A stretch of 64,000 bases of DNA from a virus. The notes under the pieces were generated by a model that saw only the letters and a list, made by a program, of their open reading frames with translations, was not told where the DNA came from and did no database searches. The stretch is taken from positions 1-64,000 of IMG/VR virus record IMGVR_UViG_3300042450_002433; one strand, 5' to 3'. Position numbers and translations under genes: made by a program. Shown piece after piece: positions 57,378 through 63,603 of the stretch. Every line of letters starts with the position of its first letter. Positions within the stretch are counted from its first letter, which is position 1.

Positions 57378-57452
57378 GGGCGGGTGCCTGATAGTGGTAA
57401 AAGGTCGCACCTTATAAGTGCGCTCATGTGGGTTCGACTCCCATCCCGCCCA
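57378..57452 (+). tRNA. tRNA-Ile(TAT)
   Basis: GGGCGGG/CCCGCCC acceptor; CGCAC-ct-TAT-aa-GTGCG; GGTTCGACTCC. Confidence 0.9.
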
Positions 57453-57489
57453 TTACAAATATGCCTAAATAACTTCGCACGGAGCAAAT

Positions 57490-58689
57490 ATGCTGTCATT
57501 CAAACAAGCAAACAGAGTTCTTTCCGAAGAAGTAGTTCGAAATAAGCATCTAGACCATATAGAAGATCTGATGCTTCTTGAGGGTGAAAAAGGCTTAAAG
57601 TTGGCTATTGCATTCCTCAAAGATATTACAGAAAGCCTGAAAACAGGCTCGACTTCTTTAGGACTCTCCACCAAATGGGATGGGAAACCTGCTATTGTGT
57701 GTGGGATTAATCCCGAAAACAATAAGTTTTTTGTTGCTACCAAGGGAGCATTTAGCAAAACTGTCTCTGCATATCACACCGAAGCAGAAATACGGAAAGG
57801 TGTGTCGATTTCCGATCTTGCCGCAAAATTGATCGAGTGCTTAAAGTATCTGCCAGGACTTGGCATCAAGGGAGTATTGCAGGGCGACTTGATGTTTACG
57901 ATGGATTCCAAAAAATCACAGACGATTGATGGAAAAGAATATATTACTTTTGCTCCCAATACGATCATGTATGCAATTGAAAAGGACAGTGCCATTGGGA
58001 AATCGGTTTCCTCTGCAAAACTTGGAATTGCTTTTCATACCGTCTATAGTGGAAAAACGATGCAGGAGTTATCTGCTGTCTCCTTCAACTTTGATGCTAG
58101 TACCCTGAAAAAGAATGCAAATGTGTGGTTCACTGACCCCAACATATATGACATCACGGCTGCACTTCTCAAGCCTGATGAATATGGCAAACTTATGGGC
58201 ATGATCAAAGACTGTGAAGGAAAATCAAAAAAGGTATCGCCGTTCCTGAAGGTTCTTCTTTCCAATGCACAGTTAGTTGAATACATCCTTCCATATATAA
58301 ATGCCACCATTAATGGCGGTCTTTCACAATTTTCTGCCCGTGGTCTTAAGTTGAATTTGGAAACCAAGTTAAACAAGGACATTGAAAAACTAAAGACAGA
58401 AAAAGGCAAGCAGGGCAAAAGAGATATACTGAACAAGTTGCTTGCCTTTGTTGATGCATACGAATCACAGTTCAATTCTATGTTTGAACTACATAATCTT
58501 ATCGCCAAAGCAAAAGAAATTTTGCTCGGTAAGTTCTATATGCTGTCTAGTTTCGGGCATTTCTTCGTGGATGACAACGGGATTTCTCCAACAGATCCTG
58601 AGGGTATTGTGGTTTCTCGTTCAGGAAGAGTCACTAAATTGGTAAATCGACTACGATTTAGTAGACAAAACAGGAAGGTAAACTCGTGA
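57490..58689 (+). CDS. RNA-ligase-like nucleotidyltransferase (DUF6267-like) with CTS-like leader
   Basis: HLDHIED, TKWDG (KxDG), QGD, PEGIVV, KLVNR. Confidence 0.7.
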   Translation: MLSFKQANRVLSEEVVRNKHLDHIEDLMLLEGEKGLKLAIAFLKDITESLKTGSTSLGLSTKWDGKPAIVCGINPENNKFFVATKGAFSKTVSAYHTEAEIRKGVSISDLAAKLIECLKYLPGLGIKGVLQGDLMFTMDSKKSQTIDGKEYITFAPNTIMYAIEKDSAIGKSVSSAKLGIAFHTVYSGKTMQELSAVSFNFDASTLKKNANVWFTDPNIYDITAALLKPDEYGKLMGMIKDCEGKSKKVSPFLKVLLSNAQLVEYILPYINATINGGLSQFSARGLKLNLETKLNKDIEKLKTEKGKQGKRDILNKLLAFVDAYESQFNSMFELHNLIAKAKEILLGKFYMLSSFGHFFVDDNGISPTDPEGIVVSRSGRVTKLVNRLRFSRQNRKVNS

Positions 58690-61600
58690 TAGAGCGTTTC
58701 TTACATCGAATTGACGAAGCAAAAAAAGACACAGCAGTTATTGCTTTCGGCAGAATGAACCCCCCGACCATCGGTCACGGTGTCTTGGTAGACAAGATTG
58801 TTTCCGAAGCGCAGAAGCACAATGCAGATCATTTCATATTTGCATCTGAAACACAAGACTCAAAGAAGAACCCCCTATCACATAAGCAAAAGGTTGCATA
58901 CCTTAAGAAGTTTTTTCCTAAGGGCAACTTTCCTGTAGGAATGGCAAAGGATCCGTATACTGCCGTTCTATATGTGTGCTCATTGGGATATAAGAACATC
59001 ATCATGGTTGCGGGAAGTGACCAAGTCGAAAACTTTAAAAACATTGCCAAGTATAAGGGCAAGGTTGCAGATCGTGATCCTAAGAAGCGTGTATATTCAT
59101 TTGAAAAATTCGAAGTAGTTCAGGCGGGTGAGGCACGGGATGATGACTCTCAAGGTGTTGAGGGAATGTCTGCTTCCAAGATGAGATCTGCTGCTTTCGA
59201 TGGAGACTTTAAAAAGTTTGCCACGGGCGTTCCAGGTAAGGATAATGCCACCAAGAAGAAGATGTACAGCGATGTTCGTAAGGGATTGAGTCTTGGGGAG
59301 TCATATATCTCAGAGGCTGTAAACCCAAGTGACAAGGTAACAATCCTTGCACTAACTTCTTCGGAAAAAGATCTATCCGATACAATCGAAAAGATGCAGG
59401 AAATCTGCAAGAAGCGCAAAATTGAATTCTATGCAGTGAAGACTTCTAAAGCACAAGTAGAAATTTCAAATGTTACTTCGAAGAAAATCACTATCAAGAA
59501 TTATGACGGTGAAGGTAAAGATATCACTGTTATCCCAAGCGACACAGTAGCAGTTGTTCGTGGTGGTGTGATGAATAGTGATATCGGTGTTGCTATCATG
59601 ACCATCTTGCAGAACAATGGAGTGTTCATGATCAATGAGCGTGGAGGAATGGAACTCTGTGCAAACAAACTAGAAACTGCAATTGCTCTCAAGAAACACA
59701 ATCTCCCACACCCACGCACAACATTTGTTGCAGACGAAAGCAATATTGAAACTGCCGTTAAGGAAATTGGTGGTAAGTTCCCCGTCATCGTAAAGACTCT
59801 TACGGGGGCTGAAGGCATCGGCGTGTCCAAGATTGAAAGCATGGAAAGCCTGAAGTCTGTTCTACAAACTCTATGGAAATACAATGCCGAAATCATTATG
59901 CAGGAATTCCTGCCTGATTTCAAGAATGATGTTCGCAGCATCTGCCTGAATGGTAAAATTTTTGCCTGTGCAAAGCGGGATAAGGCTCCTAAGGATTTCC
60001 GCACAAACATTGCCCGAGGTTCAAAGGGTGGTGCATTCCAACTCTCTGATGAAGAAATCAAGTTGGTGGAGGAAGCCGCTCGGGTTAGCAAGTGCTACTA
60101 TGTCGGAGTTGATCATGTAATCAATGATGGTAAGCCATACATCATTGAAATGAATGCAAGCCCAGGCAGTGGTAATATCTACTACCGCTATTATGAAGAC
60201 GGCAAGGGCAAGAACAATGTCGAGGGCAAAGAGTTGGTCGAAGATTTTGTTGAATATATTCTCAACAAATCCAATTGGAAACTGTTCTCCAACCTCACTG
60301 TTCGTGAAACAGTTAAGATTGATGGAGTCGAATATGAAGCCAAGGTCGATACAGGCAACAGTGGCTACAATATGATTCATGGCGAAGACATCAAAGACAA
60401 TGGAAACCACACGGTTACCTTCAAACTGTCGAATGGTAAAAAGATTACCAAGAAAATCGTCAGTCGAATTATTGTCAAGAGTGGTATTGGGGAGAAGAAG
60501 CGACTTGTTATCTTCATGGACATTGAATTCCATGGAAAGAAATACCCAAACATCAAATTCTCAATTGGTGATCGCAACCATATGTCCACCAAAGTCCTTC
60601 TCGGTCTGCAATTCCTGAGCAAGACAGGAATGTTGGTTGATCCTGCGGAGGCAATATACCCACAGAATCAAACGAAAAAAGAAGAACATGTCAATCTTAA
60701 TAGCAATACACTTTATGAAAAACTCACAAAAAACGGACAGTTAAAAGAGTTAAACAATCGATACGAACAGGACGATGCATTCGAACGCCTTGCGAAGATC
60801 GATCAGAGCGATACAACAAACAACAATAAGATTCGCCTTTCTATTGCATATGAAGAACGCTGCCTGACCCGCAATATGCAGGATGGGGCATATCTAGCAC
60901 GAACCTATATTGAATTCCTCAAAGAGATTCGCAATTCTGAGTTGGGTTCGAATCAGCCTAAGACTGATATCAACGAAGACTTCGAATTCTTTTTACTTGA
61001 AGTTAGCCCACCCAAAGGTGCTGCACGAAGTTTCTCAAAGGATGAAAAAACCAAAGCATCATTCCGAAAACAATATGGTAAGCGGTGGAAGGAAGTGTTC
61101 TATGCGACTGCATGGAAGATGCATGGAGAAGATGTAGAGCCGTCTGAGACATGGCTTGATGAGGCTAAGAAAATCAACAATGTGTTGAAATGGACTTCTA
61201 TGAGTAAGAGAGGCCCGTTACTCATCGGCACCGATAAGATTGTAAAAACCTACAAGCATGACACCCCTGGCGAGCGGAAAGAAATTGAAGAAGATAAGCC
61301 TTGTTGGGTAGGGTTTAAACAATTGGGAATGAAGATGAAGAATGGGAAAAAAGTTCCTAATTGTGTGTCCGTAAAGGAAGATACTTCTGAAGAGGAGATG
61401 TCGGATCTCTATAAGGAATGGCAAAAACTTGTAAATATGTCGGGCAAGGAGATTGATACATTCCTTGATTCTGATGACGGAACTGAGGCAGGACTGTCCC
61501 GCAAGGAGGCAGGTAAGGCAGGTGCAGACGGTGGTAAAATTAGTACAGGTCGAGATTCTGCCCGTGCAATCATTCGAATGCTAGATACCCCCATGGAAAA

Positions 61601-61757
61601 ATGGTCTGATAATGATTGGAAATGGGCAGGGAAGCAAGTCAATTTCATCAATCGAATGAAAGGCGCAAAAGGGCCTTTGAGAGACGAAGACAAAAAACCT
61701 ACTCGTAAATTGTTAGCACTTAAGGTATGGGGACACAACCCCGAAAAGGGATCATAA
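58686..61757 (+). CDS. multidomain protein: cytidylyltransferase-like, RimK ATP-grasp, RimB-like aspartyl protease, DUF3140-like
   Basis: FGRMNPPTIGH/GMSASKMR; NKL...P.IVK...G.GV...QEFL..DVR...FRTNIARG...GVD...IEMNASPG; AKVDTG...R..M...VLLG; VNMS...GRDSAR...WGHNP. Confidence 0.85.
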   Translation: MIERFLHRIDEAKKDTAVIAFGRMNPPTIGHGVLVDKIVSEAQKHNADHFIFASETQDSKKNPLSHKQKVAYLKKFFPKGNFPVGMAKDPYTAVLYVCSLGYKNIIMVAGSDQVENFKNIAKYKGKVADRDPKKRVYSFEKFEVVQAGEARDDDSQGVEGMSASKMRSAAFDGDFKKFATGVPGKDNATKKKMYSDVRKGLSLGESYISEAVNPSDKVTILALTSSEKDLSDTIEKMQEICKKRKIEFYAVKTSKAQVEISNVTSKKITIKNYDGEGKDITVIPSDTVAVVRGGVMNSDIGVAIMTILQNNGVFMINERGGMELCANKLETAIALKKHNLPHPRTTFVADESNIETAVKEIGGKFPVIVKTLTGAEGIGVSKIESMESLKSVLQTLWKYNAEIIMQEFLPDFKNDVRSICLNGKIFACAKRDKAPKDFRTNIARGSKGGAFQLSDEEIKLVEEAARVSKCYYVGVDHVINDGKPYIIEMNASPGSGNIYYRYYEDGKGKNNVEGKELVEDFVEYILNKSNWKLFSNLTVRETVKIDGVEYEAKVDTGNSGYNMIHGEDIKDNGNHTVTFKLSNGKKITKKIVSRIIVKSGIGEKKRLVIFMDIEFHGKKYPNIKFSIGDRNHMSTKVLLGLQFLSKTGMLVDPAEAIYPQNQTKKEEHVNLNSNTLYEKLTKNGQLKELNNRYEQDDAFERLAKIDQSDTTNNNKIRLSIAYEERCLTRNMQDGAYLARTYIEFLKEIRNSELGSNQPKTDINEDFEFFLLEVSPPKGAARSFSKDEKTKASFRKQYGKRWKEVFYATAWKMHGEDVEPSETWLDEAKKINNVLKWTSMSKRGPLLIGTDKIVKTYKHDTPGERKEIEEDKPCWVGFKQLGMKMKNGKKVPNCVSVKEDTSEEEMSDLYKEWQKLVNMSGKEIDTFLDSDDGTEAGLSRKEAGKAGADGGKISTGRDSARAIIRMLDTPMEKWSDNDWKWAGKQVNFINRMKGAKGPLRDEDKKPTRKLLALKVWGHNPEKGS

Positions 61758-63111: not shown

Positions 63112-63603
63112 ATGAAGTCTTATAAGCAACTGAGAAAAACAATTAATGAAAATGCACCCCACCAAAGTGCATATGATGCATCTGGAAGTGTTGGGCGTGT
63201 TGGCCCACAGGATGGTGACAATTCTCTCGATGGCAATTATAATCTGTCTTCATTGAGTCCTGTTGCAATCACTCGCATCAATACCTACTTGGGTGCACTT
63301 TCTGCAAAGCCATACATCGACCCTGTGTCTGCCTTGAAACAGGCACAGGGTAGACTTCAAATGATCGGTCTTGATTTCACAATGACCAAAGACTGTGCTA
63401 TGAGATTGTCAACACAGACCGAAGAAATTATTCCACTCGTTCGTTTTGGTGGAACTCTTCGTGCTGATGGATCTGTATATGGATATACAAAGGATGATGG
63501 AATTACTCATCTCCTTGGTCATGGTCTTGCTCTTCGTGTCGAAACACATAAACTTCCAAGTGGTCTTACCCAAGTACATGCAATGATTGTTCCTAACGGC
63601 TAA
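63112..63603 (+). CDS. late protein with CTS-like leader
   Basis: MKSYKQLRKTINE. Confidence 0.7.
   Translation: MKSYKQLRKTINENAPHQSAYDASGSVGRVGPQDGDNSLDGNYNLSSLSPVAITRINTYLGALSAKPYIDPVSALKQAQGRLQMIGLDFTMTKDCAMRLSTQTEEIIPLVRFGGTLRADGSVYGYTKDDGITHLLGHGLALRVETHKLPSGLTQVHAMIVPNG

Follow-up and report, generated by a model that had tools for sequence, protein, structure and literature searches.

A RimK–RimB fusion protein of an uncultured T4-like phage as a candidate head-cargo polyprotein

Domains of the fusion protein

The window analysed here is the first 64 kb (positions 1 to 64,000) of the 147.5-kb IMG/VR record IMGVR_UViG_3300042450_002433, which has an estimated completeness of 65% and stems from a T4-like, uncultured freshwater phage. 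On its + strand, a single open reading frame (ORF) at 58686–61757 encodes a 1023-amino acid (aa) fusion protein that combines a HIGH-motif nucleotidyltransferase, a RimK-family ATP-grasp ligase, a RimB-like retropepsin and a DUF3140 domain. To judge from its sequence and from structural models, the best explanation of this fusion would be a capsid-targeted cargo polyprotein, which the prohead protease would cut and which would enter the host along with the DNA, a reading to which we give a probability of about 0.6. The ORF starts with GTG, and a Shine–Dalgarno sequence (GGAAGG) lies approximately 9 nt upstream. Because six contigs carry the identical 1023-aa protein and more than 200 clusters share its architecture, the ORF is not an assembly artefact. 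Its features are listed below; arrows mark candidate cuts.

58686–58718, + strand: N-terminal leader (aa 1–11), ending RIDE↓A and resembling the T4 capsid targeting sequence (CTS)
58719–59291, + strand: HIGH-motif nucleotidyltransferase domain (aa 12–202)
59292–59330, + strand: linker 1 (aa 203–215), with candidate cut sites LGE↓S and ISE↓A
59331–60284, + strand: RimK-family ATP-grasp ligase domain (aa 216–533)
60285–60653, + strand: RimB-like retropepsin domain (aa 534–656), with DTG at 555–557
60654–61001, + strand: linker 2 (aa 657–772), an apparent remnant of a DUF5824-like plus helical module, ending FLLE↓V
61002–61163, + strand: basic VSPP..YATAWK module (aa 773–826), ending WLDE↓A
61164–61292, + strand: AKKIN../GTDxIVKTYxxDTPGE module (aa 827–869), ending IEE↓D
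61293–61379, + strand: CW..KNGKKVPNCV mini-module (aa 870–898)
61380–61757, + strand: C-terminal DUF3140 domain (aa 899–1023) plus the stop codon

The four domains had been named in a first-pass annotation made from the sequence alone, and all were recovered by profile searches. An AlphaFold2 model of the whole fusion, built with 41 homologues, had a mean predicted local distance difference test score (pLDDT) of 71, with confident domains separated by segments of pLDDT below 50 at residues 1–12, 205–215, 650–674, 754–771, 815–824 and 830–900. The arrangement of the domains relative to one another was left uninterpreted in this full-length model (predicted template modelling score, 0.40).

The N-terminal domain was matched over aa 11–210 by the PHROG family phrog_3041, annotated as a cytidyltransferase (E = 2e-52), and was modelled with a pLDDT of 87.5. 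The Pfam family CTP_transf_like (PF01467) scored 18.6 bits against the fusion, under the cut-off of 21, and 27.4 and 24.8 bits against homologues, which pass. The nucleotidyltransferase motifs TIGH (residues 28–31) and MSASKMR (161–167) were present, with G30, H31 and R167 invariant. A phmmer search of the PDB found no match for this domain. Modelled alone, it adopted a HIGH-motif nucleotidyltransferase fold, whose nearest solved relatives were NadM, NMNAT, NadD and PPAT (Z 12.0–12.5; NadM 2QJT, 12.5; PPAT, 12.1). The NMNAT/NadD/PPAT group as a whole scored Z 10–12.5 versus 8.9–9.4 for the GCT/CCT cytidylyltransferases, a fold score that does not give nucleotide specificity. Thus the first-pass annotation was right that a nucleotidyltransferase is present, but its term cytidylyltransferase appears from the model to be a loose label, the fold lying nearer to the NMN and PPAT adenylyltransferases.

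The second domain scored 146.8 bits against the RimK family TIGR00768 (just over the cut-off of 143.4) and 103 bits against PF08443 (E = 1.9e-29; cut-off, 21). Among PDB sequences, phmmer placed RimK (7QYR, 4.7e-24) ahead of LysX/ArgX (5e-10), and the best Foldseek matches were likewise RimK structures (7QYS, 5ZK6 and 5ZCT; 1e-16; TM-score to target, 0.83). By VIA, the domain gave Z 23.4 to RimK 4IWX, tied with ArgX at 23.1. K370, D476 and the E488-x-N490 pair were invariant among the 41 homologues, and roles in ATP and Mg2+ binding were assigned to them by analogy. By sequence and by fold, the domain lay closest to RimK ligases.

RimK adds poly-Glu chains to ribosomal protein S6 (RpsF) and also synthesises poly-alpha-glutamate (PMC11957791), so that S6 is the precedent for the target of the phage ligase, and only the precedent, by analogy with the bacterial enzyme. 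A different target is conceivable: phage head proteins that prohead-protease cutting has left with a new Glu end, a small molecule or cofactor, or a modification on a DNA base. This alternative, which concerns the target of the ligase and not its packaging, draws on the score of 70.4 bits against the S6-ligase equivalog NF007764, well short of the cut-off of 331, on matches of the MptN, CofF and LysX models to the same domain, and on the Glu termini that gp21 leaves on all of its products. It also draws on Yersinia phage YerA41, which has a RimK–RimB unit and a thymidine modification of approximately 1 kDa of unknown structure. The closest solved relatives of the domain, however, are true RimK enzymes by both sequence and fold, pairing with a RimB-type poly-Glu protease is a hallmark of the S6/poly-alpha-Glu system (PMC11957791), and the YerA41 authors read the thymidine modification as an oligosaccharide. 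Among the rivals to the cargo reading, we give this alternative a very low probability. The idea that the YerA41 modification is peptidic or glutamyl in nature was considered and dropped, as the YerA41 paper lends it no support.

The third domain passed the threshold of PF05618 (32.4 bits; cut-off, 27), as did its homologues (28–40 bits), and D555, T556 and G557 were invariant. It did not reach the RimB equivalog NF052261 (23.5 bits; cut-off, 200). By VIA, its closest structures were Pseudomonas aeruginosa RloA2 (9G59; Z 13.9, root-mean-square deviation 2.4 over 113 aligned residues) and Lpg0085 (2PMA; Z 13.0). The biochemical background given in the first-pass annotation was accurate: RimB is a retropepsin-like poly-Glu endopeptidase, with its catalytic Asp in a DTG motif, which also stimulates RimK (PMC11957791). 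Its remark that the ligase and the protease are not separated by a Glu-ending linker holds in so far as the junction has no long disordered stretch, only a four-residue dip in model confidence (535–538), and the pair occurs as a stand-alone unit in other phages. Hydrophobic-x-Glu triplets are nonetheless present at the junction, inside helices and strands.

At the C-terminus, DUF3140 (PF11338) scored 31.5 bits (cut-off, 25), or 33.5 bits with the tail scanned alone. This domain was strongly conserved across the family and also stands alone as viral proteins of 116–132 aa. The two small motifs that had been picked out in the first-pass annotation, VSPP..YATAWK (aa 773–812) and CW..PNCV (aa 872–893), are both present, and both recur in other phage proteins.

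Leader, candidate cleavage sites and virion evidence

The first 12 residues of the fusion had a pLDDT below 50 and carry RIDE↓A at residues 8–12. Among homologues, a hydrophobic-x-Glu leader ending was kept in 59 of 90, and Ala followed in 70. Leaders of relatives, such as VKNFAQHLTE↓A and MKRITQTISE↓A, are clearer examples; in the former, positions 4, 8 and 10 hold an aromatic residue, Leu and Glu, respectively, an arrangement like that of the T4 CTS (MKTYQEFIAE). In T4 IPIII, the first 10 residues suffice for capsid targeting, with positions 4 and 7 serving mainly in targeting and 8 and 10 in processing (PMC9026906). The prohead protease gp21 cleaves after Glu, and all of its products end in Glu (PMC5694885). 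In T4, an Asp in place of this Glu prevents processing. Similar leaders were found in Syn9 gp184 (MKKFSAFLSE↓A), S-SSM7_194 and Melnitz_18, and on the stand-alone RimK–RimB proteins (MENFKSFIAE↓E, MIKFEQYLKE↓K, and FKNYLEE↓A in Mosig_00005). Within the window, 15 other + strand ORFs begin with a leader of the form MK/R-S/T-F/Y/L...[LIVMF]xE, 14 of them between 4993 and 41457 and one at 63112, which suggests a large set of head-cargo proteins.

The same hydrophobic-x-Glu pattern recurs at the internal boundaries. Five modules of the family have a sharp sequence anchor, and at every one of their 119 occurrences, in 86 distinct sequence contexts, [LIVMF]xE directly precedes the module start (background, 2.3% per position). 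The residues at P3 and P1 are fixed at these boundaries, and those at P2 and P4–P6 vary; since P3 and P1 are invariant at every boundary and the neighbouring residues drift, selection appears to act on the motif itself. In the fusion, 7 of the 15 [LI]xE triplets fall in linker, which makes up 16.5% of the residues (binomial P = 0.006). Linker 1, with a pLDDT below 50 at 205–215, has E205 and E210 invariant in 24 diverse homologues. It looks like a retained remnant of a CTS leader, to judge from ESYISE↓A in the fusion, the consensus LKEEYIxE↓A of longer homologues and LKEEYIFE↓A in homologue P0020; the leader of the stand-alone RimK–RimB protein of phage Mosig has a like ending.

Of the seven Glu-ending linkers originally proposed in this protein, five are conserved and lie in or beside predicted disordered segments (RIDE↓A, YISE↓A, FLLE↓V, WLDE↓A and IEE↓D). 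The other two fell away: the Glu of LYE↓K, a site within a module remnant, is shared by 4 of 100 homologues, and VKE↓D belongs to the CW..NCV insertion, which in the alignment examined occurs only in the fusion and its close homologue P0017. The linker reading therefore holds up better for the family than in this single sequence.

These same linkers admit another account, in which the domains stay joined as a cytoplasmic, non-packaged multi-enzyme, the product of an auxiliary or host-takeover gene acting on host translation or metabolism late in infection, and the acidic hydrophobic-x-Glu linkers are flexible spacers or vestiges of former gene starts. Consistent with this, PHROG classes the phage RimK-like proteins under "moron, auxiliary metabolic gene and host takeover", the RimK–RimB gene of phage Mosig lies among replication genes, nucleotide-sugar genes are found a few genes upstream of the fusion, and some stand-alone RimK–RimB units lack a leader. 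Mere spacers, however, do not fit well with a P3 and P1 that are invariant at every module boundary amid drifting neighbours, with a leader family shared by a homologue that was detected in virions, or with a late-promoter-like motif shared with structural genes (both described below). We consider this account possible, though clearly the less probable one.

A further account involves the protease within the fusion, which might cut its own polyprotein as a retroviral protease cuts Gag-Pol, chiefly at a poly-Glu tract. RimB requires at least six contiguous Glu residues, or five where the run starts with the final Glu that the gene encodes, and it also cuts internal Glu runs, an internal E8 linker being enough (PMC11957791). 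An encoded run of at least four Glu (four to nine) was found no more than 60 residues after the RimB-like domain in 65 of 102 homologues, with at least five Glu in 45. This was the sole such run in the protein and was followed by [LIMQ]xE↓ (for example, in P0020–P0062, such as L036:2001-5603). The fusion of the window has no such tract, only KKEEH remaining, so cutting at a poly-Glu site is not possible there; its other junctions each have one Glu, and characterised RimB leaves single Glu residues uncut; in addition, nucleotidyltransferase proteins without a RimB domain carry the same leader and sites. As a general explanation, self-processing is thus quite improbable. In relatives it could act alongside gp21-type cutting, not replacing it, and their tract might serve the protease as a substrate in cis or the ligase as a primer.

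A prohead protease of the kind that the cargo reading calls for was found in two relatives that have the fusion. One of these, a 168-kb genome estimated to be 93% complete, encodes a 1201-aa form that is approximately 85% identical to the fusion over the first two thirds, together with a gp21-type protease (Peptidase_S77, PF03420; 1.3e-33) and a gp23 homologue. The latter has YLRE↓S at the position where T4 gp23 is cut.

Evidence from virions comes from S-CREM2, a T4-like cyanophage in which a "cytidylyltransferase" (ORF154) was detected in purified particles by mass spectrometry (MS) with three peptides, leading its authors to propose encapsidation (PMC10665884). This protein, gp154, proved to be homologous to the first domain of the fusion (31% identity; E = 9e-21), and its leader reads MKNFSSFLTE↓A. 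The RimK-like protein of YerA41 was also flagged as particle-associated (PMC7354516). Literature searches found no dedicated paper on phage RimK in virions or on cyanophage capsid-targeting sequences.

A late-promoter-like motif points in the same direction. The fusion is the second gene of a two-gene operon whose other elements are as follows.

57465–57471, + strand: CTAAATA late-promoter-like motif at the head of the operon
57490–58689, + strand: DUF6267 gene (399 aa; PF19782, 4.6e-90), the stop codon of which overlaps the GTG start of the fusion in the sequence GTGA

In the 147.5-kb record, CTAAATA has 25 copies on the + strand and 4 on the − strand; approximately 19 of these are found no more than 80 nt upstream of an ORF start, tail and baseplate genes among them. 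The copy at the operon lies 25 nt before it. This strand and position bias suggests that CTAAATA is probably the late promoter of the source phage, and that the fusion is probably made late, together with the DUF6267 protein. It resembles the late promoter reported for cyanomyoviruses. Examples within the window start at 2752, 18978, 21869, 57465 and 62127. The T4-type late promoter TATAAATA was set aside as a candidate, as it was not enriched in the record (4 found versus 2 expected); CTAAATA is the enriched form.

Together these data favour the cargo reading, which can be set out as a pathway. The leader of approximately 11 residues would direct the fusion to the scaffolding core inside the prohead, in the manner of the T4 CTS on IPI–III and Alt. 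A gp21-type prohead protease would then remove the leader and cleave the flexible linkers behind the Glu of their hydrophobic-x-Glu sites, releasing the HIGH-motif nucleotidyltransferase, an uncut RimK–RimB unit and several small basic peptides or domains, including DUF3140. All of these would remain in the head and pass into the cell together with the DNA. There the RimK–RimB unit would attach alpha-linked glutamates and trim them back, with host bS6 as the precedent for a target and free poly-alpha-glutamate as a further possible product. In this pathway, we infer targeting, cleavage, injection and every enzymatic activity. A stronger version, in which the injected writer/eraser pair rewrites the poly-Glu tail of host bS6, or of another Glu-ended protein, within seconds and before phage gene expression, so that the virion itself would deliver a reprogramming of the ribosome, seems unlikely to us.

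Several observations weigh against this pathway. With its 11 residues, the leader of the fusion is less T4-like than those of its relatives, and the stand-alone RimK–RimB proteins that start without one have been mentioned. Hydrophobic-x-Glu is a short motif, Glu is common in linkers, and many of the 119 boundaries are inherited and not independent. For the source phage, the protease is deduced solely from relatives: the gp20, gp21 and gp23 families were not found in the 147.5-kb record, which we attribute not to true absence but to the incompleteness of the contig (65%), whose head module is missing. The S-CREM2 detection consisted of three peptides only and covers a homologue of the first domain, not a full-length protein of the fusion type, and the YerA41 particle proteome is noisy, with polymerases and ribonucleotide reductase also listed. 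The failure to reach the S6-ligase equivalog, noted above, bears on the last step. The first-pass annotation had proposed a polyprotein cut by the prohead protease, and for this the leader, the hydrophobic-x-Glu sites, the disordered linkers, the gp21-type protease of a relative, the late-promoter-like motif and the S-CREM2 MS data supply independent but indirect evidence, while the cleavage itself is what we infer from them.

Genomic setting and shuffling of tail modules

The T4-like setting that the sequence had first suggested was borne out by a gp41-type helicase, a gp5-like baseplate hub, tail fibres and an SbcC-like nuclease in the window. A megablast search with 14 kb of the window found no match to an isolated phage, and no ribosomal protein S21 gene was found in the record. 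Around the fusion, the gene order is gp41-type helicase, tRNA-Ile(TAT), DUF6267 gene, fusion. The tRNA (57378–57452; anticodon TAT, reading AUA) is located directly upstream of the operon, between the helicase and DUF6267 genes. In Melnitz, HTVC008M and Syn9, the DUF6267 gene likewise adjoins the nucleotidyltransferase gene, the conserved pair lying downstream of the gp41-type helicase, and phrog_455 spans both the DUF6267 gene and the fusion gene. The N-terminus of the DUF6267 protein is also leader-like, ending LSE. Its homologues contain VKWDG, EGFV and KLVDR-type motifs, ordered as in covalent nucleotidyltransferases (ligases and capping enzymes); a sequence search found no solved relative.

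A survey of the architecture, which the first-pass annotation had called for, yielded more than 200 clusters (at 90% identity) of approximately 950–1330 aa in aquatic phage metagenomes. In an alignment of 105 homologues, the N-terminal 665 aa were conserved, and the tail consisted of small modules that come, go and change order: IRHxGKW, a hydrophobic module of approximately 120 aa, ADLAFKGK, the DUF5824-like ADVTKGK, VSPP..YATAWK, AKKIN../GTDxIVKTYxxDTPGE and DUF3140. Relative to its homologues, the fusion has lost from linker 2 the poly-Glu tract and up to three modules, and what remains has a pLDDT below 50 at 650–674 and 754–771. The VSPP..YATAWK module, which forms the C-terminus of shorter nucleotidyltransferase–RimK–RimB proteins, was preceded by [LIVMF]xE in all 53 occurrences (37 distinct contexts), and the AKKIN../GTDxIVKTYxxDTPGE module in all 27. 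In the latter, Y856, T860 and P861 are nearly invariant. The pattern GT[DN]x5Yx3TPG[EQ] (61239–61274; aa 852–863) is kept in every fusion tail within a region that AlphaFold predicts to be disordered, and it may be a short linear binding motif. The pattern, with its TPG[EQ] end, is also seen at the C-termini of cyanophage and pelagiphage nucleotidyltransferase proteins (L029:3983-5935, L031:3755-4903 and L032:3629-5011).

The CW..KNGKKVPNCV mini-module is, among the aligned homologues, an insertion in the fusion (P0001) and P0017 only; its motif also occurs in gene 18 of the Methylophilales phage Melnitz and matches several PHROGs of unknown function. BLAST searches of all ORFs of the genome found no second copy of the tail modules. 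A phmmer match of the tail to the tape-measure protein 8V3W in the PDB (E = 4e-4) was weak and was disregarded as probably compositional. Two distant family members, P0112 and P0120, have an extra tail insert of approximately 250 aa in which a ParB-like DGHHR motif was seen by eye only; a ParB-like domain is typical of polyvalent phage proteins.

The RimK–RimB unit occurs alone (approximately 460 aa) in Pelagibacter phage Mosig and in YerA41, and metagenomes contain it alone, as nucleotidyltransferase–RimK–RimB (approximately 685–780 aa) and as the full fusion. A scan of approximately 185,000 species genomes, made with two peptide patterns only and thus not exhaustive, returned five loci with RimK followed by RimB, all on contigs of metagenome-assembled genomes, four of which were shorter than 12 kb. 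The one such contig that was checked, of 47.5 kb and labelled Saprospirales, encodes a phage DNA polymerase, a head maturation protease and a Dda-like helicase, and is most likely mis-binned phage DNA or a prophage.

Comparison with known systems and implications

The T4 CTS/gp21 cargo, polyvalent phage proteins, the RimK/RimB pair and a bacterial hybrid of the two are already known, and each shares some features with the fusion. Like T4 IPI–III and Alt, the fusion has a short N-terminal leader ending in hydrophobic-x-Glu↓Ala, belongs to a T4-like phage and has a gp21-type protease in its lineage, and enzymes and small basic proteins are head cargo in T4, as we presume them to be here. The T4 cargo proteins, in contrast, are encoded by separate genes, each with its own leader, whereas the fusion family strings up to ten modules into one ORF with linkers resembling cut sites. 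A nucleotidyltransferase, RimK and RimB are not known as head proteins of T4, and their role as cargo here is suggested by sequence.

As in Pseudomonas, a RimK-family ATP-grasp enzyme is paired with a DTG retropepsin-like protein of PF05618, and as in the bacterial RimBK hybrid, whose protease activity has been proven (PMC11957791), both are in one polypeptide. RimBK, however, has RimB followed by RimK, the reverse of the order in the fusion (RimK at 216–533, RimB-like at 534–656), and the phage unit sits in a larger polyprotein and reaches neither the RimK nor the RimB equivalog score. Polyvalent proteins of phages and conjugative elements likewise combine many unrelated catalytic and small domains in one polypeptide (2–15 domains, conflict-related ones among them), and the survey of Iyer et al. 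(2017, PMC5512222) proposes that they travel with the DNA and are processed by peptidases. Unlike the fusion, they typically contain anchor domains such as MuF, which are absent here, and that survey does not mention RimK, retropepsin, HIGH-type nucleotidyltransferase or DUF3140.

The "cytidylyltransferases" of the Kyanoviridae group (Syn9 gp184, S-SSM7_194, S-CREM2 gp154, Melnitz gene 18 and HTVC008M AGE60464) share the N-terminal domain and the same kind of leader with the fusion. Their gene is located downstream of gp41 in Melnitz, HTVC008M, Syn9 and S-SSM7, preceded in the first three by the DUF6267 gene. In these proteins the first domain is followed by an SH3-like module or DUF5824, not by RimK–RimB and DUF3140. 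In the literature searched, we found no description of the combination seen in the fusion, of its reversed order, of a shuffled tail with cut-site-like junctions or of such a unit in a phage setting.

If the cargo reading is correct, abundant freshwater and marine myophages would use the T4 CTS–gp21 system for whole strings of enzymes made as one polyprotein, well beyond small anti-restriction proteins, and their cargo would include a protein-glutamylation pair so far known only from the regulation of bacterial ribosomes. The "cytidylyltransferase" gene, widely conserved in cyanomyoviruses, would thereby gain a role, as would DUF6267, DUF5824 and DUF3140. Modules flanked by hydrophobic-x-Glu would allow new head cargo to be added or swapped by recombination at the linker-coding sequence, and the fusion would provide a testable case of an injected phage enzyme that alters the translation machinery of its host.

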